From IMG/VR virus record IMGVR_UViG_3300050505_000109, positions 1 to 59,022 of that record: a DNA stretch of 59,022 bases; one strand, written 5' to 3'. The DNA is from a virus. Its lineage: Duplodnaviria > Caudoviricetes. The notes under the pieces are model-generated. The model had not been told where the DNA came from and did not search any database. It saw only the letters and a program-made list of their open reading frames with translations. Both the position numbers and the translations under genes were made by a program. Position 1 is the first letter of the stretch. Every line of letters begins with the position of its first letter. Shown here piece after piece: positions 25,387-43,963 of this stretch.

Positions 25387-25722
25387 GTGCCCCTCGCTCT
25401 CATCACCACTCCCCGCTACACGGCTGAGGCCATCGCTGCCTACAGCTTTGCCCATGCCAGGGACCATGATGAGATCGACGCTGCACTCCTCCGCCGAGGC
25501 GTCAGCACTCCCACTGTCCCGCTCGACCCAATGCCGCCTCTCGATGCAGCCACTGGCTGGCTCCTTCTCCACCAAGAGAAACACAACGCCATGAATGCCG
25601 CTCTCGGTCTCGACAACACTGATATGACCGCCTTCGATCTCAGCACGGAGGCTGGCTTTGCTGCGTTCGCCGGGGAGAACTTCGCTGACCACGACTCTGT
25701 CCACCAGCAGCTGAGAATCTAA
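25387..25722 (+). CDS. His-rich hypothetical virion-module protein
   Basis: H.RDH, H.EKH and DH..H repeats; GAGGAAGG SD. Confidence 0.7.
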   Translation: MPLALITTPRYTAEAIAAYSFAHARDHDEIDAALLRRGVSTPTVPLDPMPPLDAATGWLLLHQEKHNAMNAALGLDNTDMTAFDLSTEAGFAAFAGENFADHDSVHQQLRI

Positions 25723-26171
25723 TGCGCCTGACCGCTCTTCATCCTGCGCCGCCGGAGTTGATCCCAGCTCTCATTGCTGCGATGTCATCAGCCGACCGGA
25801 CTGAGCTGATCGCACTCTCTCAAGGCGCCACAACCGCCACGATCCAGCTTGCTCTCGACCGCTCCAGCTATAGCTTCTGCTGGACACTCGCCGGCCAGCC
25901 CGCCGCTATTGGCGGCGTCGTCGCCGGCGATCCGAACTTCATCTGGATGATCGCCTCCACTCCACGGCTCGAACACTCGAAGAAGTCCTTCCTCCAGCTC
26001 AGCCGGGCAGAACTCCGACAAGTCTTGGCGCTCTATCCGCACATCGTCTCTGCTGTCGACAACCGCTGGCGAAAGTCAATCCGGTGGCTGAAGTGGCTCG
26101 GCTTCCGTGACACTGGAAAAGAGGTCAAGCTGGGCGGGCGCGGGGCGGCAGTCCTGGAGATTGGGCCATGA
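25722..26171 (+). CDS. T7 gp13-like / DUF2833 GNAT-fold protein
   Basis: M..ADR.EL; IWMIAS; VDNRWRKSIRWLKWLGF. Confidence 0.8.
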   Translation: MRLTALHPAPPELIPALIAAMSSADRTELIALSQGATTATIQLALDRSSYSFCWTLAGQPAAIGGVVAGDPNFIWMIASTPRLEHSKKSFLQLSRAELRQVLALYPHIVSAVDNRWRKSIRWLKWLGFRDTGKEVKLGGRGAAVLEIGP

Positions 26172-27535
26172 CGACTGAAATCTGGTTGTGGTGGTTGATG
26201 GGACTTCTCGCAACCGTCGGTGTAGCTCGCCCGACGTGGCCGAAGGCCACGGTGCATGACCCGATCAGTGCGCTTATCAGTGGAGTGATCGACCTATTTG
26301 CTGGTGGTGGAGGACTGCTCGGTGGGCTGTTTGGTGGAGCTGAGGCGGCGGGGGCAGGAGCAGCGGCTGGGGCGGATGCCTTTGCGGCGGGAACTGGGGC
26401 GCTTGATGCGCTGACGGCTTCACTGCCGGCGGCGGGAGGGGCGGCTGGAGGAACTGCCCTTGCTGCTGATGCAGCGCTGCCTGCTCTAGCTTCGACGGCG
26501 GCGGCAACCGACTTGGGTGGAGGGGCGCTCGCTGCGGACGTAGGACTTGCCGGCGCGGCTGGTGGTGGGGCGGCTGATGTGCTTGGGGCACTTGGGCCAG
26601 GAGTCGGCGATCTCGCTGCTGGAGGTGGTGCAGGGCTCGACTTTGGTGGAGGCGGTGTCGGTGCTGGGCTCACGACTGCAACGCCGGGCTCGACAGCACT
26701 GACCAGTGTCGCACCGCTCGGCGCTGCAACGACGCCAGCTGCTGCGGCTCCGCCCGCTGAGTTCCTGGCTGCTAGCTCCCTTGACCCTACCGCTGGGGCT
26801 GCTGGCGGCACAGCTGCGGCGACACCCTCTCTTAGTGGTCCTGTCGCCAGTAACTTCGATCCCTACCTCGGGATGAATGTCACGCCGGGCGAGAATCTCG
26901 GTGGCGCAAGCGCCACCAGTGGTGGGGCTGCTGCCGCAGGCGGTCGGGGCATCCTCGACAAAGTGCTGCCCGCCGGTGTCAGCAGCTTCATCAAGGACAA
27001 CAAAGACCTCTTGACCCTTGGCGCTGCTGGTCTCCCCCTCGCAGCAATGCTTTTCCAGGGCACTCCCTCAATTCCTGGCCTCAAGGCCGCTAAGGGCACT
27101 GCCGCCGACCTGACACAGCAGGGCCGCAATCTCTCAGCTGAGAGCCAAGCCCTCACTGGAGAGGCCCTCTCCGGCGCTCTTCCTCCAGGTTATGAGGCGG
27201 CGATTGAGCAGGCCAAGAACGCTGCCACCACACGGATCAGCAATCAATATGGTGCGCTCAACCTCTCTGGCAGCACCTCTGAAGCAGTCGACAAAGCGAA
27301 CGTGGCGGCGTCGGTCGATGCCCAGCGTGCGACGATCCTGAATGACTTCCTCACGAAAGGACTTACAGCAGCGGGAGCGGCGACTGGAGCGACTAGTGCT
27401 GCGGGCAACCAGGACCTCGAACTTGCTCGGATTCAGATTGCACAAGACCAGGAGCTTCAGAAGGCTCTCCAGTCTCTGGCGTCGAACCTTGTGCTGGCCT
27501 CGATCCCCGCTCGCGCAGTCACGGCTACAGTGTAG
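26168..27535 (+). CDS. Internal virion (ejection) protein, Gly/Ala-rich
   Basis: Follows the gp13-like gene; hydrophobic Gly/Ala segments; helical C-terminus. Confidence 0.7.
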   Translation: MTTEIWLWWLMGLLATVGVARPTWPKATVHDPISALISGVIDLFAGGGGLLGGLFGGAEAAGAGAAAGADAFAAGTGALDALTASLPAAGGAAGGTALAADAALPALASTAAATDLGGGALAADVGLAGAAGGGAADVLGALGPGVGDLAAGGGAGLDFGGGGVGAGLTTATPGSTALTSVAPLGAATTPAAAAPPAEFLAASSLDPTAGAAGGTAAATPSLSGPVASNFDPYLGMNVTPGENLGGASATSGGAAAAGGRGILDKVLPAGVSSFIKDNKDLLTLGAAGLPLAAMLFQGTPSIPGLKAAKGTAADLTQQGRNLSAESQALTGEALSGALPPGYEAAIEQAKNAATTRISNQYGALNLSGSTSEAVDKANVAASVDAQRATILNDFLTKGLTAAGAATGATSAAGNQDLELARIQIAQDQELQKALQSLASNLVLASIPARAVTATV

Positions 27536-27544
27536 GCTGCTGTC

Positions 27545-29821
27545 ATGGCTGCTGCTGACGACGCCTTGCAATACATCGAGCCGCCGGGGAAGCTTTCAGC
27601 TTCGGCAGAGCCAGCAACTACAGCGCTGATGGCTGTACCCCCAGCTCCAACACTGAAGAGTGGGCTCGTAGCACCGAAAGCACCTGACACTCCCATTGTT
27701 GGAGAGCCGACACCACTTGCGCCGTCGATCACTTCTACACCCGGCGGCACAAATGGAATTGTCCCTATCGGTGCAGCCGACGAGGCGAATAAGGAGGCTC
27801 ACCTCAATATCGCTGGGCCAGTGACGCCGGCGCTCGTTGTTCAAGCCGGGTTACCTCAGCAAGAAGCCGCTGACTGGGCCTCCCTGGCGAATTGGATGAC
27901 CGCCGGCGAGGCACATGACTTCGGTCAGCTCTATGGCACTGAGAAGTTCAGCGACTTCTCTGCTCACCCTGCCGACAAAGGCTGGAGCGGCGGCATTGGA
28001 CCTGACGGCCGCCCCACTCATGCCGCTGGGCTCTTCCAGGATGAACCGAAGACTTGGCATGACATCCAGCAAAAGTATGGTTTGAGAGACTTTGGCGCCA
28101 CTTCTCAGGTCAGCGGGAATCTCCGCTACGCTGCCGACCTCTACCAGCAGAGGACTGGCCGCAGCCTGTTGGCTGACTTCAAAGCCGGCAACACTGCTTC
28201 AATCGCCAGCACGCTGTCCGATCAGTGGCCCAGTCTCGGTGGCGGTGGTGGAGGAGCCACCGATAGCAGTGATCCGGCCTTTCAGAAGTATCGACAGGTT
28301 CAGCAGGCCGGGATTGATCGGCTGAGCCAGCGGATCGACCGACTGGCTGAAGAGGCGTCGAGAGACCCGCCGGGCTCTGCTGAACGACATGAAAAGCTTC
28401 GCCGGATGATGGAGCACTCCGAGGAGCTTCAGCGCCGGTATGAGAAGCTCAGTGAAGCGCCGCCGAAGCCGATGTCGCCCTTTGAGGCCGCCGGCGACCT
28501 GACTCCTCTCCTCATCGGCCTAGTGACACTCGCTGGCACCTTCACTCGTCAGCCTGCTCTCGGCGCCATGAATGCCCTCGGCTCTGCTCTAGGAGCCCTC
28601 AAGCAGGGCAACGACGAAGGCTACAAGCGCGCCGTTGATCTCTGGTCCAAGCAAGTCGATCATGCTTCTAAAGCCTTCGGGATGCAGAATGATGAAGTCG
28701 ACATGCTCATGCGGGATCAGCAGCTCAGTGAGCGAGAGCGGCAGGATAAGCTCCAGAACGCTTTCAGGGTTCTTGGGTTAGAGAAAGACCTTGAACTCAC
28801 CAAGAGTAATATGTGGGAGACGATCTATAAGCGGCAGGATGATCGCAGGAAGCTCGCAGCTGATCTTGAGGAGAAGGCTGCGCTAACGAAGGAGCATCTT
28901 GCTAGAGCAAGTCAGCTGAGGGCTGGCGGCAAGACTCGTGGGGCTCATGGTCGAGTTGGGACAGAGCAGGGCTTTATCGACGACGCTCTGAAAGCAGAAG
29001 CGGATAAGAGACAGGTTCCTGTGGAAGAGCTGCCGGCAAAAGTTCGACGGGACATTACACAAAAGGCGCACCAGGATTGGGCGCAGGCGGGGCAGACTGG
29101 ACGGACAGCAGGGAGTGCCGTCGGTCAAGCTCGTCACGACATTGAGAGGCTCTTTGAGGCCCAGAACACTGCTGCTGGGAAGCCTGCCGAGCTAACTCCT
29201 GAACAGAAGGTCCAAGTCGACCAGCAAGCTGCCACCTTCAATCATCGAGCAGGGATGACTGGCAACCGCGCTATCGACATCCAGGCTCAGACCGACCAGC
29301 TCGGCTACAGCCTTCAGACCATCAACGATACGTTCAAGCTGATGGACCGCTATGGGATGATTGCTGGTATCGGCGGCACTTTGTTGAGGCCGGCGGAGGC
29401 CGTCGGGAACGTGCTCGGCGCTTATGGTGACACAGCTCGGGGTGAATTCCAGAGCCACATTGAATATCTCAGGATGACTGGTGCCCGCCTTCTCGCTAAT
29501 ACCTCTGGGCGACCTCTGTCAGGTGAGGAGAAACGCATCGACACGATCATCCGAGGGCTCAATCTTGGCGACACGACGGCTCGAACCTATGAGTCCCTCA
29601 ATGAACTTCAACAGATTTACACCGATATGAGGAGGCAGAAGCTCAGTCAACTGGAAGGGACATGGAAGCCGATTGCAGTGCCGGAGGCTCCAGGGACTCA
29701 TAGCCCCTATGTACCAGGGGCAGCACCGGCTGTCGGTGGAGGTGGGGCTGCAACTCCTCCGCCGGCGCCGGTAGGCGCCGTGGCGGCTCCTGGCTTTGAT
29801 GCTTATCCAGAGGCTAGGTAA
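27545..29821 (+). CDS. Ejection protein with lambda-R-type lytic transglycosylase domain
   Basis: GEA..FGQLYG..KFSDFSAHP...HAAGLFQ...TW..IQQKYGLRDF..SQ...QWPSLGG matches the lambda lysozyme pattern. Confidence 0.82.
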   Translation: MAAADDALQYIEPPGKLSASAEPATTALMAVPPAPTLKSGLVAPKAPDTPIVGEPTPLAPSITSTPGGTNGIVPIGAADEANKEAHLNIAGPVTPALVVQAGLPQQEAADWASLANWMTAGEAHDFGQLYGTEKFSDFSAHPADKGWSGGIGPDGRPTHAAGLFQDEPKTWHDIQQKYGLRDFGATSQVSGNLRYAADLYQQRTGRSLLADFKAGNTASIASTLSDQWPSLGGGGGGATDSSDPAFQKYRQVQQAGIDRLSQRIDRLAEEASRDPPGSAERHEKLRRMMEHSEELQRRYEKLSEAPPKPMSPFEAAGDLTPLLIGLVTLAGTFTRQPALGAMNALGSALGALKQGNDEGYKRAVDLWSKQVDHASKAFGMQNDEVDMLMRDQQLSERERQDKLQNAFRVLGLEKDLELTKSNMWETIYKRQDDRRKLAADLEEKAALTKEHLARASQLRAGGKTRGAHGRVGTEQGFIDDALKAEADKRQVPVEELPAKVRRDITQKAHQDWAQAGQTGRTAGSAVGQARHDIERLFEAQNTAAGKPAELTPEQKVQVDQQAATFNHRAGMTGNRAIDIQAQTDQLGYSLQTINDTFKLMDRYGMIAGIGGTLLRPAEAVGNVLGAYGDTARGEFQSHIEYLRMTGARLLANTSGRPLSGEEKRIDTIIRGLNLGDTTARTYESLNELQQIYTDMRRQKLSQLEGTWKPIAVPEAPGTHSPYVPGAAPAVGGGGAATPPPAPVGAVAAPGFDAYPEAR

Positions 29822-32800
29822 TGTCTGATCTACCGACCTCTATTCCAGGAGCAGGGCTTGACCCATCAGGATTGGGAATGGGCGGTTCAGCACCGCCGGA
29901 GAAGCCTCTTCCTCGGCTGAAGGACCTCTCCGAAGCTCAGTCACTTGCGCCGGGCGACTTCTTCCTTGACCCGTCGGGCACCAAGCGCCAGCGCCCCTAT
30001 GACGTGAAGACACCCCTTGATGTTGAGAGGCTGGTCCCAGAAGGCTCCCACTTTCGCGACCCGACAGGCAAAGTCCGGTTGAAGCCAGAGACAGAGCCCT
30101 TGGATATCGGCGCCCAGGTCCTCTATAGCATGGCCGGCTCTGACAAGGCCCGACGACAACAGGCCCTCGAATATATCTATGGGCGCCATGCTGTAAAGGA
30201 GACGCCCGGCGGTGACTTCCTTGTCCAGGACATTGACAACAAGCGGTGGTTGAAACCAGGGAAAGGGCTGCTTGGGCCAGCAGTGGGGGCGGTAGCAGAA
30301 AGCATCGCCCCGGTAGTGGGTTCAATTGGAGTTGGGATGCTGGGCGCCAGTGTCGGCGCTACCGAGTTTGGCGTCGGTGCTCTCCCCACTGCGGTACTCG
30401 GCGCAGGCAGTGGAGCAGTCGCTGGTGAAGCCTTCAATGATATGATCCTTGGCTTGATGGGGATTAAGTCCTCTGACGATGAGACCCGCCGACGGATGAC
30501 AGAAGCGGCCACTCTTGGAATGGCTGGAGAGGGCGTCGGCCGAGCCGTCGGGGCAGTGGTTCCACCAGCTCTTAAAGCCTTCACTGGGCTCCGCAAAGGC
30601 GTGACTGAAGCCGCAACTAGCGGCGACATCCTACCTCGCGCTGCCCGCTTCGTCCTCGGCGCAGAGGGACCAGAGACCCTTCAGGCTCTAGAGATGACTC
30701 GCAGCGGGACACTGGTTCGGCCGTCGGCTTTCATGCTGGAAGCCCCCTATCTCAAGAAGGTCATCGAAGAGTTCGATCCAGTCTTTCGGCAGCAACAACC
30801 TCTCCGTCAGTCGGCCGCTGAGTTCTATGAACGCAAAGGCGGGGAGCTGGCAGGCAAGCTCGGGATCAATCGAACTACGCCGTTGCTCTCACCGACGGCC
30901 GCCGTCGAAGTTGAGCCTCTCGGGATTGCACTCAAAGAACGCCTCGGGGATGAAGTCGCCGTCGCTAACGACCGGCTGAATCAGGCTATTGCTGCTCGCA
31001 AGGCGGCGGCGCAAGCCTCAGCAGCTGAGGCCCAGACCTTTAAGTCGACCGAACTCTCCGGCCTTCACACTGCCGAGAATGAACTCAGGACGACGGCTCA
31101 ACGAATCGTCGATTCTGGATTCTCCGACGTGAGTAAGTCGGTCCAAGATGCAATGAAGGCAGCCGGGGCGGATCAGCATCCTGGGGCGCTGTGGACTGCG
31201 GCCGGCGACCAGCTCAACAAGATTCATCTCGGGATCGAGACAGTCTCAGCTCGTGGCTACAATGCAGGCCATGCCGCCGCCGGCCCGACGCCGATGGCTC
31301 TATCACCAGCGGTGACTGAAGCTCGGACCTTCCTCTCCACTCTGCCTGAAGGCTTCGAGTCACGGTTCCCCGCCTTGACCAAGGAGCTTGAGACCCTCTC
31401 TACTCCAAGAGGCACCGGCATCGTCGGTCTCGACGGCAAAGAAATCATGCGAGTGCCTGACATCACTCTCGAACAGGCCCACAATCTCCGCAACCTCGCC
31501 CGTGCTCAAACCAATCGGGACATGCCCTACAACGATCTCCTCGAAGGCCGCCGGAAGCATCTCGCCGGGATCGTCAATAAGTGGATGCACGATCCTAGTC
31601 AGCCTCCCGCTGTCAAGGCCGGCGTCGACATCATCGACCGCTGGGACACTTGGTATGCGAAGAACATCGGACGCTTCGATCAGGAAGCAGTCCAGACAAT
31701 CGCGAAGAAGATGAAGGCCGGCTTCGTCGATGATGCCCCCGCACTAGCGAAGCTAGTGCTCGACCCGAATTCCACGGTCAACCGGGAGAATGTGAAGAAG
31801 CTGCTTGGCCCGACGTTGTGGAAGGCAGTCCATGCCGCCGACGTGAGCCGAGTGATTGAATCTAGTCGGGACGCTCTCGGGAAGGTCGACTCGACAACCT
31901 TCGCTCGACAGGTCTTGGATCGAGCCAGGACTAAGCTCTGGGATGAGAGTGACTTGGGGCAACGGACTATCCAACTTGCGAAGCAAGTTGAGGCGATGGC
32001 ACCGAAGGGCCGAATCCCGCTCGACGCGATGCCTGGAGACACTGTTGCCTCACTTCTCCAGAGAGCGAACACCTTCGCTGCTGAGGCCAAGCAGGCCGCC
32101 GCCGTCGATCCAATCAAGCTTCTCAATCAAGAAACCACTAGGATTGAAGCTGAGCGAGCAGCTGCCCAGAAGGAGATGACCGCCGAGTTCAGGAAGAGCC
32201 CGCTGAACTTCCTCACCGAGCCGACTGTAGGCGCCATCGAGGCCGGCGAGCGCATCCTCAATAGCCCTGACCTTACTCTTGCTGTCGCGCATCGCTTCGG
32301 GACAGACTCGCCCGAGTTCAGGATGCTGCGGCAGGCTTATGCTGAGAAGCTGCTTCAGGTCGGCGGCGGTGAAGGCGTCGGCCGAGCCGCCAATATGCTG
32401 CATACTCTCCAGCGTATCCCTGAGTCAGTTCAGCAGATTGTCTTCCCTGGCGTCACGAAAGATGAGGCCCTCACTCTGGCGAAGAATATGTCCTTCCTGC
32501 TTGGTGGGACTGGGGAGACTTTCGGCGGCGGGATTGCAGCGGCCCAGCGGGTCCTCAATCCTGTGCCTGAGCTGCGGCACTTCAGCATGGAGGCTGCCAA
32601 GGTTCTCAGCCGGGTGCCAGGCGGCAATCTAGCCGCTCGTCTCACAATCGGCAAATACTACCAAATCATGACTTGGGCTTTCACTCATCCGAAGTTTGTC
32701 GAGTGGCTGGCGCAGGGACTAGAGAAGGGTCCAGTGGAGAGGGAGACGGCTCGGAAAGCGTTCTGGGAAGCGTCAGGGCTTGGTCGAGACATTGGGGGTG

Positions 32801-32934
32801 CAGTGGGAGCGGGGGTTGGCGTCATGAATGTCGATCAGGCTCAACCACAGGGTCGACGGACAGCTCGACCGACGCCAGCACTTAGGCCAACTGGCAGCTC
32901 GCCCGCCGATCAAACTCTTCGGAGCATCCAGTAG
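29821..32934 (+). CDS. Large internal virion (ejection) protein
   Basis: 1037 aa, helical; glycine-zipper segment; third gene of the ejection cluster. Confidence 0.7.
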   Translation: MSDLPTSIPGAGLDPSGLGMGGSAPPEKPLPRLKDLSEAQSLAPGDFFLDPSGTKRQRPYDVKTPLDVERLVPEGSHFRDPTGKVRLKPETEPLDIGAQVLYSMAGSDKARRQQALEYIYGRHAVKETPGGDFLVQDIDNKRWLKPGKGLLGPAVGAVAESIAPVVGSIGVGMLGASVGATEFGVGALPTAVLGAGSGAVAGEAFNDMILGLMGIKSSDDETRRRMTEAATLGMAGEGVGRAVGAVVPPALKAFTGLRKGVTEAATSGDILPRAARFVLGAEGPETLQALEMTRSGTLVRPSAFMLEAPYLKKVIEEFDPVFRQQQPLRQSAAEFYERKGGELAGKLGINRTTPLLSPTAAVEVEPLGIALKERLGDEVAVANDRLNQAIAARKAAAQASAAEAQTFKSTELSGLHTAENELRTTAQRIVDSGFSDVSKSVQDAMKAAGADQHPGALWTAAGDQLNKIHLGIETVSARGYNAGHAAAGPTPMALSPAVTEARTFLSTLPEGFESRFPALTKELETLSTPRGTGIVGLDGKEIMRVPDITLEQAHNLRNLARAQTNRDMPYNDLLEGRRKHLAGIVNKWMHDPSQPPAVKAGVDIIDRWDTWYAKNIGRFDQEAVQTIAKKMKAGFVDDAPALAKLVLDPNSTVNRENVKKLLGPTLWKAVHAADVSRVIESSRDALGKVDSTTFARQVLDRARTKLWDESDLGQRTIQLAKQVEAMAPKGRIPLDAMPGDTVASLLQRANTFAAEAKQAAAVDPIKLLNQETTRIEAERAAAQKEMTAEFRKSPLNFLTEPTVGAIEAGERILNSPDLTLAVAHRFGTDSPEFRMLRQAYAEKLLQVGGGEGVGRAANMLHTLQRIPESVQQIVFPGVTKDEALTLAKNMSFLLGGTGETFGGGIAAAQRVLNPVPELRHFSMEAAKVLSRVPGGNLAARLTIGKYYQIMTWAFTHPKFVEWLAQGLEKGPVERETARKAFWEASGLGRDIGGAVGAGVGVMNVDQAQPQGRRTARPTPALRPTGSSPADQTLRSIQ

Positions 32935-32938
32935 AGCG

Positions 32939-33325
32939 ATGGCAAATCCTATTGGGCAGCAAGATGATGTCGTCGGCGCTACTGATAAGCTTATGAAAGC
33001 GCTGCTGTCGAAGGCTGAAGCTGACCCGGATAATGTTGATTTCGGACTCCAGTGCGTGCAAGCTGCAACTCGCTGGGTCGCGGTCAAGAACCGCATGAAC
33101 GTGCCTGAAGAAGGGAATGCCTTTGATGGCTGGCGAAGTTCAATCACTAGTGGAGGTGGCTCGGGACCCGGACGAGAGCCCGCCGCCGCCAGTGGCTCGG
33201 CTTCAGGTGCTGAGCGAGCGGCCCCTGGTGTCAAGAAGGGCTCCCGCTCCGGCACAATCGGCGCCAGCCGTCTCCCTGCCATCGACGCCGGCCGCCCCAT
33301 CTCCCTCGGCCCCACTCCTCGCTGA
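32939..33325 (+). CDS. hypothetical protein
   Basis: Helical N-terminal half; C-terminal half overlaps 33117..33560. Confidence 0.55.
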   Translation: MANPIGQQDDVVGATDKLMKALLSKAEADPDNVDFGLQCVQAATRWVAVKNRMNVPEEGNAFDGWRSSITSGGGSGPGREPAAASGSASGAERAAPGVKKGSRSGTIGASRLPAIDAGRPISLGPTPR

Positions 33326-33560
33326 TCGACACGCTGCGCGTGTCGCGGCGGCCCTCGGAACCTTCGATGCGATAGCCAAGGTCCTCTCGACCAGGGCGAT
33401 CCTGCTGCTCAGTGTCGTCGGCGCCTGGGGCCTCGGCTTCCTTGCCGTCAACACCCATGACCTCGGAGCGCTAGGCGCCGCCGCCGGTTTCTGCATCCTT
33501 GTCGTTATTCCCCTTGTTTGGCTCGACCACACCACCAGGAGACCCACCCCAGGAGGCTAA
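33117..33560 (+). CDS. Two-TM membrane protein (holin-like candidate)
   Basis: AILLLSVVGAWGLGFLAV and LGAAAGFCILVVIPLVWL. Confidence 0.6.
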   Translation: MPLMAGEVQSLVEVARDPDESPPPPVARLQVLSERPLVSRRAPAPAQSAPAVSLPSTPAAPSPSAPLLADRHAARVAAALGTFDAIAKVLSTRAILLLSVVGAWGLGFLAVNTHDLGALGAAAGFCILVVIPLVWLDHTTRRPTPGG

Positions 33561-33564
33561 TCCC

Positions 33565-34746
33565 ATGCGTAAGCACGTTATCGGAGGTATTGCTCTAGCA
33601 GCACTCCTCGCCATCAGCTCAGTCGTCTTCCTCACTCCTCACTCAGCCGAAAGCCAAGTCACCGGCGCCTGCCCCGCTAATCAGTTCGTCAGCGTCATTG
33701 GCAGCAGCATCCCCGCCCAAGCCTGCTCTCAGCCGACGGTCTCGAATCTCTCCGGTATCCTCCCAGCAACCTCAGGCGGCACCGGCGTCAATAACGGCGC
33801 CAACACGATTACGCTTGGCGGTGCCCTAGTCACTGGCGGCGCCTTCACGCAGAGTGGCGCCTTCGCCACGACGATCACTTCGACGGCGACGACGAACTCG
33901 ACTCTGCCCTCTGGGACCCACAACCTAGCCCCCCTCGATAGCCCAAGCTTCACGACGCCGACGCTCGGCGTCGCCACTGCGACCAGCCTGAACGGCAACA
34001 CCTTCACGACCGGCACCTACACGCTGACTGGGACCGCCGGCAAGACACTGACCTTCACCAACAACTCGACGTTGTCGAGTGTTGATGGCAAGACACTCAC
34101 GTTCAACAACAACCTGACGCTCGCCGGGACTGATGGTCAGACGATGACCTTCCCGGCGACCTCAGCAACGATTGCTCGAACGGATGCTGGGCAGACCTTC
34201 ACTGGAGTCCAGACATTCTCGTCGGCGATCACTCCGACGGGCGGTGTCAGCCCCGCCGGCGGCTTCACTGTAAGCCCCCGTAACATCTCAACTTGCAACG
34301 TCACGCCGTCATCTGAGACTGTGACCGGCGCCTTCACCGCTCAGACTCCTGTCAACACTGAAGTCTACATTGCTGAAGTCACCGTGCCCTACAACGTGAC
34401 TGTGACAGGAGTGGCCGTACTCAATAGCTCGACCCTCTCGGGCAACCTCAAGGTCGGCCTCGCCAACAGTGCCGGGACTGTTGTAGCAACGTCGGCGTCG
34501 ACCGCCAATGCTGGCTCAGCCGTTTATCAGCTCGTGCCTTTCACCGGGACCTACGCCGCTGTTGGACCAGCGACCTACTATGTGCTGACCTTCTACGACA
34601 ACAACACTGTCAGGCCGAATGCTCTCACCGTCGGGAGCTGCGGCGTCGCCAAGCAGACCGGCCAGACCTATGCGACTGGCTTCACGACGATCACGCCGCC
34701 GACGACTTTCACGACGGCTCTTGGACCAGTGGCGAACCTCTACTAG
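33565..34746 (+). CDS. Tail-fibre-like protein with N-terminal signal peptide
   Basis: AGGAGG SD; MRKHVIGGIALAALLAISSVVFLTPHSAES/Q; GGTG.NNG..TITLGG, SP.FTTP.LG and GKTLTF repeats. Confidence 0.78.
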   Translation: MRKHVIGGIALAALLAISSVVFLTPHSAESQVTGACPANQFVSVIGSSIPAQACSQPTVSNLSGILPATSGGTGVNNGANTITLGGALVTGGAFTQSGAFATTITSTATTNSTLPSGTHNLAPLDSPSFTTPTLGVATATSLNGNTFTTGTYTLTGTAGKTLTFTNNSTLSSVDGKTLTFNNNLTLAGTDGQTMTFPATSATIARTDAGQTFTGVQTFSSAITPTGGVSPAGGFTVSPRNISTCNVTPSSETVTGAFTAQTPVNTEVYIAEVTVPYNVTVTGVAVLNSSTLSGNLKVGLANSAGTVVATSASTANAGSAVYQLVPFTGTYAAVGPATYYVLTFYDNNTVRPNALTVGSCGVAKQTGQTYATGFTTITPPTTFTTALGPVANLY

Positions 34747-34756
34747 AGCCACCCCT

Positions 34757-36643
34757 ATGAGGCGCTTCTGGCTGTTACTTGGGCTACTGTTGCTGCCGCT
34801 TGATGAAGTGGCGGCGCAGGGCGTTGTCAGCCAAGCCAACAGTGTTGTCGTTGGGCATCTGCCTGTCTGGGCAGTGAATCGAGTGGTGCGGGATGCCGGC
34901 TCTGCCGACGGCACTGGGCCAGGGATCACTGAACTCCTCCAAATCAATCCAATCACTCCAGCCGGGACTGGCCCCGACGGCACCCATAATTGCTTCTACG
35001 ATGGGCCAAAGACCGCCGGGTATCACTTCCTCTGCTTCGACGCAAATGCGCTCGGGGGCGGCCTGATCGACTACGGCGCCGCCAACGGGGCTCCTCTCCA
35101 GCAGCTTGCCTGCCGCATCAACGGGAACACCTACAGCTGCGTCAACACCGGCAATGGCAATGTCGTCGGGCCGAACTCCTCCACGACTGGGAACCTCGCC
35201 GCCTTCAACTCCTCCAACGGCCAGCTTCTCGCGGATTTTGCACTTCCGATCAGCACGATCACCAAAGGCAAGATCGGCTTCTGGGTGACAGATGCCTCCA
35301 CTAACCCGACGGTTCCAGGCCATGTCGTCACGCCTGATAACAGCGTGGTGAACTGCGCCGGGACGACTTCGAATTGCTTCAATGAGACTCTCGCCAAGCT
35401 CCGCACTGCCCCCAATCCGTCGATTGAATTCGCTGGCAGTGGTGAGACTCTCGCGAATATTCAAATTACGACCAGCGGCTCCATCACCGTCCCCTACCTC
35501 CGTAACCAGACTGTCCACGGTTATGGAGCTGGCATCTACAGCACCGCGAATAATTTGCCGGCACTCACCCTCGACAGCATGGCAGAGGGCTCCTTCATCA
35601 TAGAAGGCGGACAGATTGCTGGAGCTAGCGGGACCACCGCTACTGCTCCGAGTGCTGCCGTCCAGATTCATCCTCATACAACTGTCCAGCCCGAGAACAT
35701 CACCGCTGTCTTCAGCAGTATCATCCAGCTCGGTAACCTTTCTCTGAACACCAGCCTTGGTTCAGCTAATCAGACCCTCTTCCTCAACATGACCGACGGC
35801 GGCTTCATCGGGAATACGCTTTCTGCGATTGAGGTCAACTGCACTGGGAATGGCGCCGGTGGGGTAGCAGCTATTGGGGCACTGGTATCTGCACCGACGC
35901 CGACGATCAGCTTCACTCACAACAATATCCACATCGGCACAATCCATCAGTGCCCTGGAGCTGCTTGGCAGGAAGGAGTCAATGCCGGCGAAGGTGCAAA
36001 CATTTGGGGCAACATCATCACAATTGATAAGATTGCCCCAAATGGTGCCTCTTCGACTGGATTCAGCACCTATGCTAGCAACGATACAATCACGATCAAT
36101 GTGAGTGACGAGGAAGGCCCTGTCGGGACTTGTCTCACTCTACAAAGTAGCGCAACTAATAACAAGGTCCAGCTCGACTGCGCCGCCGGCGCTACCACAA
36201 TCACAAATGGAGTCACGCTCGGCGCTGGCGCCACCGGCAACACTATCGCGATGACCGGCCGTGGCACCATCACGACGTTGTTCAATGATGTCAGCGGCGG
36301 CGTGAACACCTATTCCTACAACGGGAATGTCATCCAGGAGTTCAAGGGCGTCGGCGGGACACAGCAGTTCAACTATCAGACGCCGACGAGCGCCACTAAT
36401 GGCACTCTGCTATCAGGGTCTACGAATTCAGCTGGGACAATTCAGCTCTCCGGCTCACACTCATCTGTTCAGGTCAGCTTCTCCGTCACTTTTCATGCGG
36501 CAGCTACATGCTTCTGGCAGACAAACCAACCAGGGACTTATCTCAGCACGAGCGCAAGCTCGAACACCTCAGCCACCGCCGCCTCAAATATTGCGATGCC
36601 GAATAATGCACTGGTGGCTTATCAGTGTCATGGAGGTGCCTAG
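34757..36643 (+). CDS. Tailspike/fibre-like protein (probable beta-helix) with N-terminal signal peptide
   Basis: MRRFWLLLGLLLLPLDEVAA/Q; GNVVGP.SST.GNLA.FN fibre motif; N/I/T-ladder repeats; 12 Cys. Confidence 0.75.
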   Translation: MRRFWLLLGLLLLPLDEVAAQGVVSQANSVVVGHLPVWAVNRVVRDAGSADGTGPGITELLQINPITPAGTGPDGTHNCFYDGPKTAGYHFLCFDANALGGGLIDYGAANGAPLQQLACRINGNTYSCVNTGNGNVVGPNSSTTGNLAAFNSSNGQLLADFALPISTITKGKIGFWVTDASTNPTVPGHVVTPDNSVVNCAGTTSNCFNETLAKLRTAPNPSIEFAGSGETLANIQITTSGSITVPYLRNQTVHGYGAGIYSTANNLPALTLDSMAEGSFIIEGGQIAGASGTTATAPSAAVQIHPHTTVQPENITAVFSSIIQLGNLSLNTSLGSANQTLFLNMTDGGFIGNTLSAIEVNCTGNGAGGVAAIGALVSAPTPTISFTHNNIHIGTIHQCPGAAWQEGVNAGEGANIWGNIITIDKIAPNGASSTGFSTYASNDTITINVSDEEGPVGTCLTLQSSATNNKVQLDCAAGATTITNGVTLGAGATGNTIAMTGRGTITTLFNDVSGGVNTYSYNGNVIQEFKGVGGTQQFNYQTPTSATNGTLLSGSTNSAGTIQLSGSHSSVQVSFSVTFHAAATCFWQTNQPGTYLSTSASSNTSATAASNIAMPNNALVAYQCHGGA

Positions 36644-36645
36644 CA

Positions 36646-37056
36646 GTGTCGATGCCGGATGAAGACAATGAGGTTCAAGTCCGTCCAAATGGACGGACGG
36701 TGGTGGCGCTAGCGGAGAGGCTTGCTGTTGTTGAGACGAAGGTCGATGGGCTCAAGGAGGATTCCGTTGTCATCCGAGCCACTCACCATGAGATCAATAA
36801 TCGGATGCAGGAGTTCGTCGCTGCCGAGAAGCTCTGCGCGGCGAACCTCGGCACTCTAATCTCAGCTCAAAGCACTACGAACTCTCAGATCGCTAAGCTC
36901 ACTACGACAGTCGAAGAACTCCTCTTGGTGAAGGCAAGAGTAGAAGGTGGGTGGAAGGCGATAGTGAAGGTGGGAGCCTTTGCTGGAGCTGTGGTGACAG
37001 CGATGGCTGGAGTCATAGTCTACGCGATTGAGCATCTCTCAGTCCGGCTGAATTGA
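36646..37056 (+). CDS. Coiled-coil protein with C-terminal TM (XhlA-like holin candidate)
   Basis: ERLAVVETKVD coiled coil; GGWKAIVKVGAFAGAVVTAMAGVIVY TM; upstream of the endolysin. Confidence 0.6.
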   Translation: MSMPDEDNEVQVRPNGRTVVALAERLAVVETKVDGLKEDSVVIRATHHEINNRMQEFVAAEKLCAANLGTLISAQSTTNSQIAKLTTTVEELLLVKARVEGGWKAIVKVGAFAGAVVTAMAGVIVYAIEHLSVRLN

Positions 37057-37268
37057 TGGCCGAGCCGCTCAAAGAGCACTGTCAGGCTTGCATTGGAGAG
37101 GGCATCATCCTCCATGTTAAGCGGAAGATGGCCAATGGAGAGCCTGACCCGTCGGACCTGAAGATGTTCGACCTCTGTGAGAAATGTAGCGGGAGCGGCC
37201 GAATTCTGTTAGATAAGAGCCGGATTAAAGAGCCGGGGAATATTGCGGATAAGGCGGTGGTGACATGA
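37053..37268 (+). CDS. Small DnaJ-type CxxCxGxG zinc-finger protein
   Basis: CQACIGEG and CEKCSGSG. Confidence 0.7.
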   Translation: MMAEPLKEHCQACIGEGIILHVKRKMANGEPDPSDLKMFDLCEKCSGSGRILLDKSRIKEPGNIADKAVVT

Positions 37269-37915
37269 GCGACAGGCCGTTTGATATGCCGGATGCTTCA
37301 CACAGCTTTGCTGTACGGGGGGCGTGGCTGGTACAGCGGTTTACGGAAGACCTCCAGCTTGGGGCAACGTTCAGGGGAGGTGGGATTGTTGGGAATCTGG
37401 GATTCGAGAGCGGTGGGCTCAAGATTATGCAGGAGCAGCACCCGATCTCAGGGAAAGGTGGGTGGGGGTGGGAGCAGGCGACAGGACCTCGGCGGCGCGC
37501 AATGGAGGCGTGGGCAGCCGCCAAGGGCTTCGATCTCTCAGGGGATCAGGCGAACTACGGCTTCATCCTGGTGGAGCTGCAAGGCAGCTTCGCCTTCGTC
37601 GTCACCCGGCTCCGGGCCGCGACGACGTTGGAGCAGGCCGTGCTGGCCTTCGGGATTTATGATGAGGCGCCCGCCGGCACCTCTCCAGGCCATCTCCCTG
37701 GCTACCTCGACCGGCTTACCTACGCCCGGCAGGCAATGGCCGCCCTCGACCCAGCCACCCCATCGACGCCGCCCCCTGTCGACGCCGCCATCCCCACCGC
37801 CATCCGAGAGCTTCAAACCGCCCTCCAGACACTGGGCCTCTATCATGGCGCAATCGACGGCGACTTCGGCCCTCAGACCACCGCTGCCCTCCAGGCATGG
37901 CGGGCCACCTTATAA
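37265..37915 (+). CDS. Endolysin: phage-tail-lysozyme-type domain plus C-terminal peptidoglycan-binding domain
   Basis: GIVGNLGFESGG, GWGWEQ.TGPRR, ANYGF...EL; IRELQTAL..LG.Y.GAIDGDFGPQT..AL. Confidence 0.88.
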   Translation: MSDRPFDMPDASHSFAVRGAWLVQRFTEDLQLGATFRGGGIVGNLGFESGGLKIMQEQHPISGKGGWGWEQATGPRRRAMEAWAAAKGFDLSGDQANYGFILVELQGSFAFVVTRLRAATTLEQAVLAFGIYDEAPAGTSPGHLPGYLDRLTYARQAMAALDPATPSTPPPVDAAIPTAIRELQTALQTLGLYHGAIDGDFGPQTTAALQAWRATL

Positions 37916-38043
37916 TGCAAGAGGCCCTCAACAAGCTGACCACTGTTGTCATTACTGTTGCTGTTGTCAGCCTCTTCATCTACGGTCCAGGCCGCACTCT
38001 GATTTGGCCCTGGTTTCTTTGGCAACTGATCTACGGAGGATAG
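37915..38043 (+). CDS. 42-aa membrane peptide (lysis accessory candidate)
   Basis: TAATG coupling; MQEALNKLTTVVITVAVVSLFIYGPGRTLIWPWFLWQLIYGG. Confidence 0.55.
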   Translation: MQEALNKLTTVVITVAVVSLFIYGPGRTLIWPWFLWQLIYGG

Positions 38044-38047
38044 AATT

Positions 38048-38503
38048 ATGAAGAAGTTTATCGTCGGGGCCGGGCTGGTCTTATTGCTGCTACAAGGATG
38101 CGGCGGCGTCGGTCAGTCTGAGTCGAGCCGGATCACGACGGTCTTGACCCAGCTCGGCAATACTCTGGTGGCGGACTTGGCTCAGCAGAAAGCGATTGCC
38201 TTGGCTGCGACGCCGCCAGACACCGATGGCGCGACTTGTGCCGACGGCGCAGCTACCGTGGCCGCCGCGATCCAGAAGGTCGCCGCTGTCACCGCCGGCA
38301 AGACCGTCGGCGCCTTCAGCGTAGCCGAGATCGCCTCGCTCTATCAGCCTGGAAGCGCGCAGTTCAACTGGGCCGTGAAGACGCTGGAAGCAGCCTGCAT
38401 CGCTAAAATCCACGATACTAACCAAGCTATTAACAGCACAGCTGGAATTATCACAGCTCTTCCATCGGTTCTGGTTCTAGCGGGTGCTCCAATAGGAGCC
38501 TAG
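38048..38503 (+). CDS. Lipoprotein (spanin-like candidate)
   Basis: GGAGG SD; MKKFIVGAGLVLLLLQG/C lipobox; hydrophobic C-terminus. Confidence 0.75.
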   Translation: MKKFIVGAGLVLLLLQGCGGVGQSESSRITTVLTQLGNTLVADLAQQKAIALAATPPDTDGATCADGAATVAAAIQKVAAVTAGKTVGAFSVAEIASLYQPGSAQFNWAVKTLEAACIAKIHDTNQAINSTAGIITALPSVLVLAGAPIGA

Positions 38504-38639
38504 TTCTACCTTGAACGATGGCGTGAATTGTTCCAACGTGAACGCCGAAGCGCTCAGCGGTGACACGAGCAACGATGCCATGCCCGTGATTGCTGACTTC
38601 ATAGGGCCAATTTGGTATGCTGCGCCATTCCTCTTGCAT
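38451..38639 (-). pseudogene. Internally deleted NUMOD4-HNH homing endonuclease remnant
   Basis: NUMOD4 start EEWRSIPNWPYEVSNHG joined directly to the C-terminal HTH AERFGVHVGTIHAIVQGRT; no HNH core. Confidence 0.7.
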
Positions 38640-38680
38640 CACGAGACAGTACACGACGTGAACAGCGAAAGCAACTGAAA

Positions 38681-39370
38681 ATGATTAACATCGCCCTCAT
38701 CAATCGCACAGCTCGAATCCGGGACGCTCGATTCCAGAGCATCCTGGCAGGACTTCAGGCTCAGATCACCGAGGACTTTGCGCCGGCGTGGGGCCTTGGC
38801 GAGGAGAGCATTGTCCTCCACTTTGTCGGCCGTCGGCAGCAGCCTGACCCAACGCACTGGAAGTGCTGGCTCCTCAACAACAGCGATGACGCCGGCGCCC
38901 TCGGCTACCATGAAGACGATACCGGCACTCCAGAGGCGAAAATCTTCGTCGAAGAGGACCTCCGCTACGGTGCGTCAATTAGCGTCACGATCAGCCATGA
39001 GCTGTTGGAGATGCTGGCTGACCCTCAGACGACAAGGATGGGGCCAACAATCGACGGCGCCGCTTATATCGTAGAGGTGTGCGACGCCGTCGAAGCCGAT
39101 GGGGATGGCTACATCAAGAACGGCGTCCTCGTCAGCAACTTCGTCCTGCCGACTTACTACGAGCCTAGCGCACTGAGGCCGTTCGATTTCAGGTCGCTGC
39201 TGACTGCACCGTGCCCGGCACTTCGGCCCGGCGGTTATATCATGTTCCTCAAAGATGGAACGTGGCAGTCAAAGATGGCTCGATATGAGGACGGTAGTCT
39301 GTCTCATCGAGCTATCCGGCCTTGGGGAAGAAGCTGGAAGCGGGCATCGAAGGGAGCCACTGGGCCATGA
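38681..39370 (+). CDS. Putative zinc metallopeptidase
   Basis: GALGYH, TISHELLEMLADP, EVCDAVE, VSNFVLP. Confidence 0.72.
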   Translation: MINIALINRTARIRDARFQSILAGLQAQITEDFAPAWGLGEESIVLHFVGRRQQPDPTHWKCWLLNNSDDAGALGYHEDDTGTPEAKIFVEEDLRYGASISVTISHELLEMLADPQTTRMGPTIDGAAYIVEVCDAVEADGDGYIKNGVLVSNFVLPTYYEPSALRPFDFRSLLTAPCPALRPGGYIMFLKDGTWQSKMARYEDGSLSHRAIRPWGRSWKRASKGATGP

Positions 39371-39490
39371 CGGAACGGCCTTAGTATGCCTTAGCGACTT
39401 ACTTCGACCCGAAACCGTATAGGCGAAGGCCGAAGTAGGGCTATCAGTCTTCGCCTATGGCGAAGAGAGCACATTCAGAAGGAGGCGCCG

Positions 39491-41323
39491 ATGTTTCAGC
39501 TCCTAGTGAGAGTCGCCGTTGTGATGCTGCTGCCACTTACTTGCGTGAAGGCACAAGTAGTGAGTGGGCCACCGACGGCTGCTTCAATCGTCGGTGTTGT
39601 TGCTCCAGGCAATGGCGGCACCGGCATCAACAACGGCACCTCTACAATCACACTCGGCGGAAACTTTGTCACTGGGGGAGCACTTAACCTTAGCGGCTCA
39701 TCAACAGTCGTATTTGGGAACACCCTCAATAGTACACCAGCTCTGTCATCTAACCAGCTTATTCTGCCGAATGGTGCCTGCGGAGTGCCAACTTATACCT
39801 ATTCATCCGACGCTAATACTGGTTGGTATCTTGATGCAGTCGGGTCGTTAACGGCTTGTACAAGCAGTACTCAGCGCTTACGAGTGAGGCTCGGTGTTCA
39901 GATCGGTGTACCGACTGGTGGTGACCCTGGCGTAGGTAAATTGAATCTTGCCAGTGATCTTCAAGATAACGGCACCGCGCCGACAGGAACAGCTGGCACC
40001 GGCTATGTCCGGGCGACTTCACCCGTCTTAGTAACTCCCAACCTCGGCACACCATCTACTTTAGTCGCGACAAATGCGACTGGAACGGCAGCAGGACTTA
40101 CTGCTGGGAATGTGACGACAAATGCAAATCTGACTGGTCCTATTACATCGAGCGGCAACGCAACAGCGATTGCATCGCAGACAGGCACAGGAACGAAATT
40201 TGTTGTAGATACTTCGCCTACATTTGCTACGTCATTCTCTCTTAACTCTGGCGCTTCAAAGATCGCAGTCGCGAAACAATCAGGCTGGCCGGGAAGTACC
40301 TATAATTGCTTTGCACTTAACAACGATTGCACATTCGCCAACATCATTGGCATCGTAGGTGGTGATGTGTCGGACAACACTCTCTATGTGATGTCTGGCG
40401 CAAATGCAGTAATCGTTTATGGTGGTGGTGCATCGCAAGCCATCTTCAATGGTGGCGTGCAGTTCGGCGCTCCAACAGGTGCTGCGAAAGGCGTAGGAAC
40501 ACTCAACAGCCAAGGTGCAATTTACGACAATGGCACCGCTCCAACTGGAACGGCAGGTAGTGGGTATGTCCGGGCTACTTCGCCGAGCATTGCATCGCCG
40601 ACTATTACCGGCACGGCAGCAGGTGCCGGCACCCTCCCAAACGCAATGCTTGTCACTACGCCAGTTGCTAAAGTTAGCCACCAAACCTTTACGGCTACGG
40701 GTACTTATACGCCAGCTACAGGCATTCTTTATGCTATAGGCGAGTGCGTTGGCGGCGGCGGCGGTGGTGGTGGGTCCGCAGGGTCGGCGACTGGAGGCAG
40801 TGGCGGCGGGGGCGGCGGGGCTGGTTCCTATTCGAAGGTTCGGTTGACCGCTGCGCAAATAGGAGCGAGTCAGGCTATCACCATCCCGACCGCATCGGCC
40901 GGTGCGGCGACAGGGAATAATGCTGGGACCGCTGGAGGAGATGTGAGCCTTGGGACGCTGCTAGTCTGTAAAGGTGGAGCCGCAGGCGGTGGAGCAGCAG
41001 CCAATTCTGCTGGGGCTGGTGGCGCAGGAGGGATTGCTGGAACGGGAGATGTGACAGGAACCGGCCAATCCGGGCGAAGCGGCCTAGGTGCAGCAATTAC
41101 CACTATTACGATCCCGCAGGCGCAAGGCGGGAGCACGCTTTGGGGTGGGGCAACTGTTGCTGGTACAGGTGTCGCAGGAGGAGCGCAGGATGGAAGTGCA
41201 GCTGCGGCTGGGGCGTTCGGCGCAGGGGGCAACGGCGGCATAGTGAGCGGTAGCGCTAGCACTGCTGCTGGAGGTGCTGGCGCAAAGGGCTTCCTCCTTG
41301 TGACGGAGTATTTGAGCCAATAA
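39491..41323 (+). CDS. Tail-fibre-like protein with signal peptide and C-terminal glycine-rich domain
   Basis: AAGGAGG SD; MFQLLVRVAVVMLLPLTCVKA/Q; QTFTATGTYTP...VGGGGGGG Gly-rich domain; internal duplication. Confidence 0.8.
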   Translation: MFQLLVRVAVVMLLPLTCVKAQVVSGPPTAASIVGVVAPGNGGTGINNGTSTITLGGNFVTGGALNLSGSSTVVFGNTLNSTPALSSNQLILPNGACGVPTYTYSSDANTGWYLDAVGSLTACTSSTQRLRVRLGVQIGVPTGGDPGVGKLNLASDLQDNGTAPTGTAGTGYVRATSPVLVTPNLGTPSTLVATNATGTAAGLTAGNVTTNANLTGPITSSGNATAIASQTGTGTKFVVDTSPTFATSFSLNSGASKIAVAKQSGWPGSTYNCFALNNDCTFANIIGIVGGDVSDNTLYVMSGANAVIVYGGGASQAIFNGGVQFGAPTGAAKGVGTLNSQGAIYDNGTAPTGTAGSGYVRATSPSIASPTITGTAAGAGTLPNAMLVTTPVAKVSHQTFTATGTYTPATGILYAIGECVGGGGGGGGSAGSATGGSGGGGGGAGSYSKVRLTAAQIGASQAITIPTASAGAATGNNAGTAGGDVSLGTLLVCKGGAAGGGAAANSAGAGGAGGIAGTGDVTGTGQSGRSGLGAAITTITIPQAQGGSTLWGGATVAGTGVAGGAQDGSAAAAGAFGAGGNGGIVSGSASTAAGGAGAKGFLLVTEYLSQ

Positions 41324-41509
41324 GCCCATAGATTTGTCGTCCTTTGGGCGAACAAGTCTCGACCTGACGACGGCGGAGGAGCATATGACCGCAGGGATTG
41401 GACTAAGGTGGGGTGTCTTAGCTTTCTTAGGGCTGGCGACCTTGCAGGGGTGTTCAGCACCGGCCGACCGTCGAGACTGCCCGCTGATCTTAGTTTGGCA
41501 ATGTGCAAC

Positions 41510-41797: not shown

Positions 41798-42027
41798 CCT
41801 TTGGTGGGGAGAGTGGAGGCATCAAGCGGCGCAGCCGCTCCGGGAACAACCGGGCGAGGTCCGACCGCTTCAGAATCAGGGCAATCCGGTCGCTGCTGTT
41901 CATCCTTCTTCATAGCAGACCGACGGCGTACACGCCACCGTCCATTTCCCCATCTTGGATAATACCACTCGTCATTGCTGTTCATATGGGAGCCCTTCAT
42001 TGACGGCTTGTAGACGATCTGCGACAA
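41794..42027 (-). CDS. hypothetical protein (start uncertain)
   Basis: Fills the operon gap. Confidence 0.4.
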   Translation of the reverse strand: MSQIVYKPSMKGSHMNSNDEWYYPRWGNGRWRVRRRSAMKKDEQQRPDCPDSEAVGPRPVVPGAAAPLDASTLPTKG

Positions 42028-43956: not shown

Positions 43957-43963
43957 TGATTTG

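Follow-up and report, generated by a model that had tools for sequence, protein, structure and literature searches.

The 59,022-bp stretch of DNA analysed here in full (the window; IMG/VR record IMGVR_UViG_3300050505_000109) is a podovirus-like phage genome, complete according to CheckV, and its late genes encode three fibre- or spike-like proteins, P0001, P0002 and P0003, that each begin with a Sec-type leader followed by Gln. The observation of leaders and cysteines in these proteins is confirmed and lies far beyond chance, and comparison with related sequences shows the predicted leader and its cleavage site to be genuine and under selection. It is very likely that the three proteins are exported by Sec and form disulfides, and they very probably mature in the periplasm of the host instead of in its cytoplasm, where the phage particle is built. 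Our preferred reading, to which we assign a probability of about 55%, goes one step further: the proteins would be exported by Sec, would receive their disulfides in the periplasm, and would join the particle at lysis. The three genes and their products (lengths in amino acids, aa; ↓ marks the predicted cleavage site) are as follows.

33565-34746, + strand: P0001, 393 aa, candidate exported fibre; leader at 33565-33654 (30 aa, AES↓Q), followed by a short loop between Cys36 and Cys54, a shaft in which GGTGVNNG and repeat motifs occur, and at about residues 225-393 a tip (Cys244, Cys359) resembling the beta-sandwich of lectins and carbohydrate-binding modules (CBMs)
34757-36643, + strand: P0002, 628 aa, spike- or fibre-like; leader at 34757-34816 (20 aa, VAA↓Q), then a conserved N-domain at 34817-35176 (Cys79/Cys93) and a 490-aa body with 10 more cysteines
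39491-41323, + strand: P0003, 610 aa, candidate exported fibre, 3' of the lysis genes; leader at 39491-39553 (21 aa, VKA↓Q), then a shaft that many leaderless tail fibres also have, with residues 403-604 forming a glycine-rich tip

Leaders and predicted cleavage sites

The leader of P0001 consists of MRKH, a hydrophobic stretch of 19 residues and TPHSAES↓Q31, that of P0002 of MRR, FWLLLGLLLLPL and DEVAA↓Q21, and that of P0003 of MFQLLVR, VAVVMLLPL and TCVKA↓Q22. All three show the charged n-region and the uncharged core of 7-20 residues by which Sec/signal peptidase I substrates are recognized, with a single Arg in the n-region of P0003 and a long, 19-residue core in P0001, and at AES↓Q, VAA↓Q and VKA↓Q the −3 and −1 residues are small and no Pro stands at +1. 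An earlier note on this DNA had described leaders with n-, h- and c-regions at 33565, 34757 and 39491 and strong Shine-Dalgarno (SD) sequences at the first and the last of these starts; sequences and coordinates are as it described them, and the SD sequences are present as AGGAGG, 7 nucleotides (nt) 5' of 33565, and GGAGG, about 5 nt 5' of 39491. The start at 34757 is without an SD sequence and lies 11 nt after the preceding stop codon, to which it is coupled. Three other interpretations of these N-termini were considered and rejected: a Tat signal in P0002 (MRRFW), because of the shortness and strong hydrophobicity of the leader and because other family members do not keep the RR; a lipobox in P0003 (PLTC), as Thr at −1 is non-canonical; and an internal start of P0002 past the leader, as there is no Met near the start of the domain.

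Leaders were scored by a rule that asks for an uncharged 10-residue span with a mean Kyte-Doolittle value of at least 2.0 and a Lys or Arg ahead of it. Seven of the 78 non-overlapping open reading frames (ORFs) of at least 60 aa in the window passed: three are the fibre-like proteins, one is the lipoprotein encoded at 38048, and the other three are marginal. Whether the leaders are conserved among homologues was then used as the test. For the P0002 N-domain, an exhaustive phmmer search of 1.84 billion cluster representatives was made with mature residues 21-140 only, so that the leader cannot bias which relatives are found. It returned 598 cluster representatives (50% identity) at E ≤ 1e-3, 134 of them at E ≤ 1e-10. 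In nearly all of the 150 matches listed the N-domain starts at residue 19-38, and 134 of the 148 family representatives among the matches listed passed the leader rule. Homologues beginning past the leader, which the earlier note had named as the finding that would speak against export, are accordingly few, and most of them look like 5'-truncated calls that begin at an internal Met. Leaders are also present in all three direct homologues of P0002.

The alignment of 151 family sequences points to a site of the type A-x-A/G/S↓Q, with Ala at −3 in 120, Ala, Gly or Ser at −1 in 137, and Gln at +1 in 141 (7 more have a gap there); in a second N-domain alignment of 139 sequences, Q21 is invariant. 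The columns of the hydrophobic core are variable in sequence and those of the site are conserved. As the core is thus kept by its character and the cleavage site by its sequence, we take the segment to be a signal peptide and not a structural helix. The N-domain itself is an unannotated family without a Pfam model, and the combination of a predicted leader with paired cysteines is general across it. The structural model of the N-domain (predicted local distance difference test score, pLDDT, 83.6) consists mostly of beta strands; it had no fold match at E ≤ 0.001 in the PDB or BFVD, sequence and profile searches of the PDB gave nothing meaningful, and a search of the ESM Atlas gave only matches with scores below 0.9 or template-modeling (TM) values below 0.4, with no taxa.

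In each of the three window proteins the residue behind the predicted site is Gln, and Gln also stands behind a (−3,−1)-compatible site in 128/134, 27/45 and 6/11 of the leader-bearing members of the three families. These counts would also be expected if the hosts were Bacteroidota and the +1 Gln simply reflected the Q-rule of that phylum rather than a function of the fibre N-terminus. According to the available part of PMC5837995, Gln is the +1 residue of about 71% of the signal peptidase I substrates in Bacteroidetes, a share that lies below 9% in most Chlorobi; the expected pyroglutamate at the new N-terminus is another likeness to our proteins, and the leaders of the Cellulophaga phages discussed below follow the rule. 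We nevertheless consider this explanation the less likely one. An SD-like 4-mer precedes 16 of 28 window starts against a background of 16%, the guanine-plus-cytosine (GC) content of the window is 58.5%, and the N-domain was found in none of the sampled Bacteroidota genomes, which is weak evidence if the phages are lytic. Bacteroidota make little use of SD sequences. Because SD-like motifs are frequent in the window and so argue against a Bacteroidota host, we read the Gln, which in contrast to that of Q-rule substrates is conserved family-wide, as a feature of the family that probably provides an extracellular protein with a pyroglutamate cap.

Cysteine pairs and fibre identity

Four cysteines are present in the mature part of P0001 (36, 54, 244 and 359), 12 in P0002, all of them in the mature part, and six in that of P0003 (97, 123, 273, 280, 419 and 493; Cys18 lies within the leader), and a recount from the positions upheld the even numbers 4, 12 and 6 that had been claimed for them. 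In contrast, cysteine is absent from the three large internal virion proteins (455, 758 and 1037 aa) that this phage encodes. The mature cysteine number is even in 120 of 130 members of the N-domain family, and the positions covary in pairs: of 151 sequences, 145 have Cys79 together with Cys93, 5 have neither and 1 has a single one of the two, and for Cys119 and Cys128 the corresponding numbers are 13, 137 and 1. Between P0002 and its relative P0124, which are 46% identical, eight cysteines are conserved as four neighbouring pairs, and the four that P0002 has and P0124 has not are two neighbouring pairs. Disulfides are likely to form at such positions.

Cysteines and leader are also linked in the family of the P0001 tip. 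The relatives of this tip number 1,455 at E ≤ 1e-3 among 8,000 scored candidates, and leaders and cysteines were counted in the 120 best sequences, the query included. The Cys pair of the tip occurs in 32 of these 120, and 31 of the 32 have a leader; the sole leaderless one starts with Val, which identifies it as a truncated call. The 88 sequences without the Cys pair comprise 15 with and 73 without a leader. Proteins that carry the leader together with this tip range from 218 to 688 aa and have very different architectures, and the leader is there in all of them. Of the 119 best relatives of P0003, the 11 that have a leader are the Cys-rich ones (median 0.68% Cys versus 0.32%). Leader conservation, the even and paired cysteines and the link between leader and Cys pair in the P0001 tips together lend support to the idea, put forward in the earlier note, that these proteins are exported and fold oxidatively.

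That the three proteins are fibres or spikes is shown by comparison of their sequences with those of relatives. The fibre motifs that had been quoted for them are all present, and the leaderless relatives of the P0001 tip and of the P0003 shaft have classical tail-fibre N-termini, a few of them with precomputed collar or S74 domains (PF07484, PF13884). P0003 matches PHROG tail-fibre families (phrog_863 at 2e-10); with 19.9 bits, below the cut-off of 24.3, it resembles Gly_rich_2 (PF21722), and membership is not claimed. Pfam and PHROG scans of P0001 and P0002 gave no match. The predicted P0001 tip is a beta-sandwich (pLDDT >94), and its only PDB match below an E value of 0.001 (E 5.8e-6) is 9jwb_Z, which is chain Z of the capsid of cyanophage A4; lectins, carbohydrate-binding modules and baseplate proteins of phages follow with weaker fold matches (E ≥ 2.5e-3). 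In the available part of PMC12002296, the auxiliary cement protein gp25 of A4 is described as an N-terminal anchor with a carbohydrate-binding module, and chain Z may correspond to this protein. Among 65 N-domain family members that were scanned, six have a pectate-lyase-like beta-helix, three Peptidase_S74, one Beta_helix and one YadA_head.

The comparison with classical podovirus fibres and tailspikes (T7 gp17, P22 gp9, and the leaderless fibre set of the phage MW202753) has two sides. Our proteins share with them the gene position after the internal virion proteins, the shaft motifs with a lectin/CBM-like or glycine-rich tip, the beta-helix and S74 chaperone domains (in family members), and a conserved N-terminal module with swapped distal parts. 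They differ from them in the Sec-type leader, the near-invariant A-x-A↓Q, the covarying Cys pairs, and an N-domain that matches no known anchor folds.

The same data bear on the view that there is no export at all. The proteins would then fold in the cytoplasm, and the N-terminal helix would be used in the virion, removed by a phage protease, or retained as an uncleaved anchor in the inner membrane. Phage capsid proteins are known to give false-positive signal-peptide predictions according to the available part of PMC10367356, and the hydrophobic stretch of P0001 is of transmembrane length. However, a helix of this kind would not explain a core that is conserved in character only and is accompanied by an A-x-A↓Q site, nor would cytoplasmic folding account for cysteines that are even in number and covary in pairs, for the lack of the Cys pair in leaderless relatives with the same tip, or for the contrast with the Cys-free cytoplasmic virion proteins of the same phage. 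We regard a route without export as very improbable.

Virion attachment or host envelope

In the pathway that we infer for export, pyroglutamate formation, periplasmic location and virion attachment, each protein would cross SecYEG unfolded, signal peptidase I would cleave at A/V-x-A/S↓Q, and the exposed Gln would probably cyclise to pyroglutamate. Trimerisation and disulfide formation would follow in the periplasm, while head, adaptor, nozzle and ejection proteins would assemble in the cytoplasm as usual. Fibres would meet particles only once holin and endolysin break the envelope, and would dock on the tail then; free fibres and tailspikes are classically known to dock in vitro. The 120-residue domain behind the P0002 leader would be the portable docking module, and the variable distal parts would bind or cut surface polysaccharide. 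The presumed docking site is the set of adaptor and nozzle proteins encoded at 20930..24851, a role that is assigned by analogy with T7 and A4 as described in the available part of PMC12002296.

Gene order is consistent with this. In the late operon, the genes of the ejection proteins are followed by those of P0001 and P0002, the lysis region and the P0003 gene. In the T7-type gene order, the fibre gene comes after the internal virion proteins, and the P0001 and P0002 genes occupy the slot of T7 gp17, directly behind the internal virion proteins. The nearest annotated GenBank relative of the window, MW202753 (Bacteriophage sp.), has terminase, portal and capsid proteins that are 37%, 28% and 44% identical to those of the window and a nozzle protein that is 28% identical over its full length, and it also shares the adaptor. 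The nozzle gene of MW202753 is immediately followed by genes for eight fibre proteins without leaders, which contain 0-3 Cys and one of which has an S74 chaperone, and none of these eight proteins matches the window. The earlier note had recognised no conventional leaderless fibre in the tail module, and this has held: no such fibre turned up when the other late proteins were scanned with Pfam and PHROG, and the eight of MW202753 are missing here.

A cultured parallel comes from the Cellulophaga phage phi10:1 (KC821618), whose gp091-gp094 are recorded in GenBank as 'structural protein' on the basis of experimental tandem mass spectrometry (MS/MS) proteomics. All four have a canonical leader and then Gln, and the same is true of the neighbouring pectate lyase gp095 and of gp082 of phage phi46:3 (KC821622). 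As in the window, these are tail-region genes with Gln at +1; phi10:1 has siphovirus-type tail genes, phi46:3 belongs to the Pachyviridae, both have a Bacteroidota host, and the proteins contain 0-2 Cys. The leaders are not mentioned in the two GenBank records. The fibre-slot position, the comparison with MW202753 and these analogues lead us to consider the three proteins as probable virion fibres.

A match of architecture is found outside the phages, in the mosaic adhesive trimer (MAT) fibres of Bdellovibrio bacteriovorus. As described in the available part of PMC10769870, they begin with a signal peptide, followed by a conserved beta-rich N-domain of about 130 aa for which that part reports no PDB homologue, and they form trimeric fibres with exchangeable adhesin tips, S74 in 13/21, and disulphides in the tips. 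Signal peptide and layout are as in our proteins. The P0002 N-domain family has this MAT-type layout, a match of architecture only; the PDB holds only C-terminal MAT fragments. MAT fibres, however, are encoded in the chromosome of the predator and displayed on its surface (PMC10769870, same part), whereas the genes described here lie in late operons of tailed phages.

A pattern scan of IMG/VR based on the family alignment (alignment A3) found 66 loci with the N-domain, some with two copies, and P0002 as a lone query found no relative there. Four of the phages concerned, taken whole, are complete genomes of 56-68 kb, and two of them have two copies. In L135, a phage whose capsid protein matches Pfam GP7 (1.5e-103), the N-domain gene is flanked by the head genes on one side and a tail block on the other, with more leader-bearing ORFs beside it. 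The N-domain profile, which recovered five of five virus records as a positive control, matched 0/401 sampled Pseudomonadota genomes and 0/401 sampled Bacteroidota genomes, and the domain was not found in five named genomes. A search of genome contigs matched shaft repeats only, across many phyla, and tblastn searches of 50,697 GenBank phage records with P0001, P0002 and two further proteins, P0237 and P0391, gave no match to N-domain or tip, the single match of P0237 being a shaft-like stretch.

Blocks of three to five consecutive large, leader-bearing and Cys-rich ORFs were seen at 4310-13576 in L103, 3870-12838 in L131 and 3192-11689 in L138; blocks of this type occur in complete phages of 56-68 kb, some with two N-domain copies. 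In L022, a different type of phage, leader-bearing ORFs directly follow the portal gene and the capsid gene (4326-4721, about 9090-9721 and 9782-10492), and one of them encodes a leader and a P0001-type lectin tip only.

Exported and disulfide-bonded proteins need not end up in a virion. They might instead stay in or on the envelope of the infected cell, held by the N-domain, and bind or cut nascent capsule, O-antigen or slime, so that the receptor is destroyed or masked; superinfection would be blocked, progeny would not stick to debris, or the matrix would be loosened at release, and the particle would adsorb through its adaptor and nozzle proteins, which carry Ig-like domains. A common cellular partner would suit an N-domain that is found in phages with unrelated tails and GC contents of 45 to 64%. 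MAT fibres, with the same layout, are displayed on a cell surface (PMC10769870, in the part available), many short relatives consist of the leader and a tip domain alone (218-245 aa), and P0003 is set apart from P0001 and P0002, behind the lysis genes. Phages of P. gingivalis encode secreted proteins that follow the Q-rule and are thought to alter the host surface, being reported in the available part of PMC10367356 as likely surface modifiers and not as fibres. On the other hand, a complete genome would then be left without a recognisable fibre or spike, even though the relative with the same tail has eight, and the genes would occupy the fibre position of the late operon for another purpose. 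Moreover, Sec export alone gets no further than the periplasm in a two-membrane host, the profile result given above speaks against a common cellular surface protein in the sampled genomes, and the phi10:1 analogues are reported in virions. We therefore rank a fate in the envelope as the less probable one, if still the most serious competitor of virion attachment.

Several points weigh against export followed by virion attachment and have to be set beside the evidence for it. The leader rule is crude, and the 19-residue hydrophobic stretch of P0001 could be an uncleaved membrane anchor. The association of leader and Cys pair in the P0001 tips (Fisher p = 2.8e-16) was obtained from related sequences, so that this p value is no true probability. 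The fold searches matched the N-domain to none of the known fibre-anchor domains. The phages that carry it share the domain at 32-43% identity and have tail proteins that are not similar to those of the window (blastp, 1e-5); beyond the N-domain, the similarity to structural proteins of the window that blastp found is confined to an Ig-like stretch and, in G809, a match of the P0003 tip type. An N-domain in phages with dissimilar tails is unexpected for a tail-docking module and is the better fit to a common host-envelope partner. The Cellulophaga proteins gave no blastp match to any of the proteins collected, and as sequence similarity is missing, phi10:1 supports our reading by analogy only. 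Finally, a match in virion MS/MS may stem from envelope debris that co-purified with the particles, and the GenBank record is silent on cleavage of the leader.

Textbook morphogenesis of tailed phages is wholly cytoplasmic. No description of Sec-exported tail fibres of tailed phages was found in the Creative Commons (CC)-licensed PMC and bioRxiv literature searched. The receptor-binding protein g3p of the filamentous phage M13 has a signal sequence and is inserted by Sec (PMC8310372, in the part available), as is proposed here for P0001, P0002 and P0003, but M13 is not tailed, and its virion is assembled by extrusion at the membrane and not in the cytoplasm. It is conceivable, at somewhat short of even odds, that many tailed phages use a two-compartment assembly, in which the DNA-filled particle forms in the cytoplasm while the recognition set of fibres, spikes and depolymerases is exported by Sec, pyroglutamate-capped and disulfide-linked in the periplasm and is joined to the particle at lysis by a portable N-terminal plug with a new fold, which may be the module by which Bdellovibrio mounts its MAT fibres.

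If fibres do fold in the periplasm, the production of receptor-binding proteins for engineering and diagnostics needs export and Dsb enzymes, and lysis timing and fibre attachment have to be linked. Annotation is affected as well, since the usual practice is to discard a signal peptide in a structural module as a false positive or to call its gene a 'moron'. The new family contributes 598 clusters (50% identity) with a docking-type domain that has neither a Pfam model nor a known fold, and the cultured Cellulophaga phages, with their published virion proteomes, are a direct test case for a periplasmic fibre route.

Gene order and other genes of the window

The structural and lysis genes around the three fibre-like genes are the following.

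9847-11799, + strand: terminase large subunit (phrog_2, 6.4e-14)
15646-17334, + strand: portal (weak SU10_portal match, 22.3 bits versus a cut-off of 30)
18795-19805, + strand: major capsid protein (phrog_9953, 4.9e-25)
19741-24851, + strand: proteins with Ig-like domains, including two adaptor-like paralogues and a nozzle-like protein of 754 aa
20930..24851, + strand: the adaptor-like paralogues (247 and 306 aa) and the nozzle-like protein (754 aa), with Ig-like domains in all three
25722..32934, + strand: internal virion (ejection) proteins of 149, 455, 758 and 1037 aa (the first: phrog_308, 1.6e-21)
33117..33560, + strand: ORF with two predicted transmembrane segments, adjoining P0001 on its 5' side; no Pfam or PHROG match
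36625..38503, + strand: lysis region, after the P0001 and P0002 genes
within 36625..38503, + strand: possible holin of 143 aa with a C-terminal hydrophobic segment
37265-37915, + strand: endolysin (Phage_lysozyme2, 5.5e-12, and PG_binding_1)
38048-38503, + strand: spanin-like lipoprotein (LLQGC)

The adaptor and nozzle proteins are homologous to proteins of 282 and 662 aa in MW202753. The two adaptor-like genes stand in tandem (20930-22590), their products have similar N-termini, and the single 282-aa copy of MW202753 matches both. Just 5' of the portal gene, 14456-15649 encodes a protein with LPD23 (3.9e-14) and a DUF6782 metallopeptidase-like domain, and a gene for tRNA-Thr (anticodon TGT) lies at 25294-25369, between the nozzle gene and those of the internal virion proteins. 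In the lysis region, the lipoprotein encoded behind the endolysin points to a host with two membranes. Between the possible holin and the endolysin, 37053-37268 encodes a 71-aa protein with two CXXC pairs, whose match to the DnaJ central domain is below the cut-off (21.3 versus 32.7 bits). An inverted repeat, GGCGAAG ... CTTCGCC, was seen by eye in the 120-nt gap at 39371-39490, just 5' of the SD sequence of P0003; no promoter or terminator pattern was found in this gap, and a promoter and terminator scan of 32800-41800 gave results at or below shuffled expectation.

The minus strand carries the replication genes, with a family-A polymerase, helicases and a nuclease, and no integrase was found among ten minus-strand proteins scanned. 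Two separate ORFs encode the family-A DNA polymerase (45501-48368, minus strand): 46566-48368 encodes a UDG-like domain and the first part of the polymerase, 45501-46259 encodes the last part, and an ORF at 46259-46729 lies between the two and overlaps both. A frameshift or an insertion could explain this arrangement, or the enzyme could really consist of two parts. Near the left genome end, 875-2155 and 3641-4672 (minus strand) encode a DUF2201 metallopeptidase/VWA protein and an AAA ATPase, a pair that resembles the MoxR/VWA type. Four replication proteins encoded at 42164-52360 (minus strand), namely a DUF3987 protein, the two polymerase parts and a PD-(D/E)XK nuclease, have counterparts with 24-29% identity in G807 and G808, two of the N-domain phages that are otherwise unrelated to the window.

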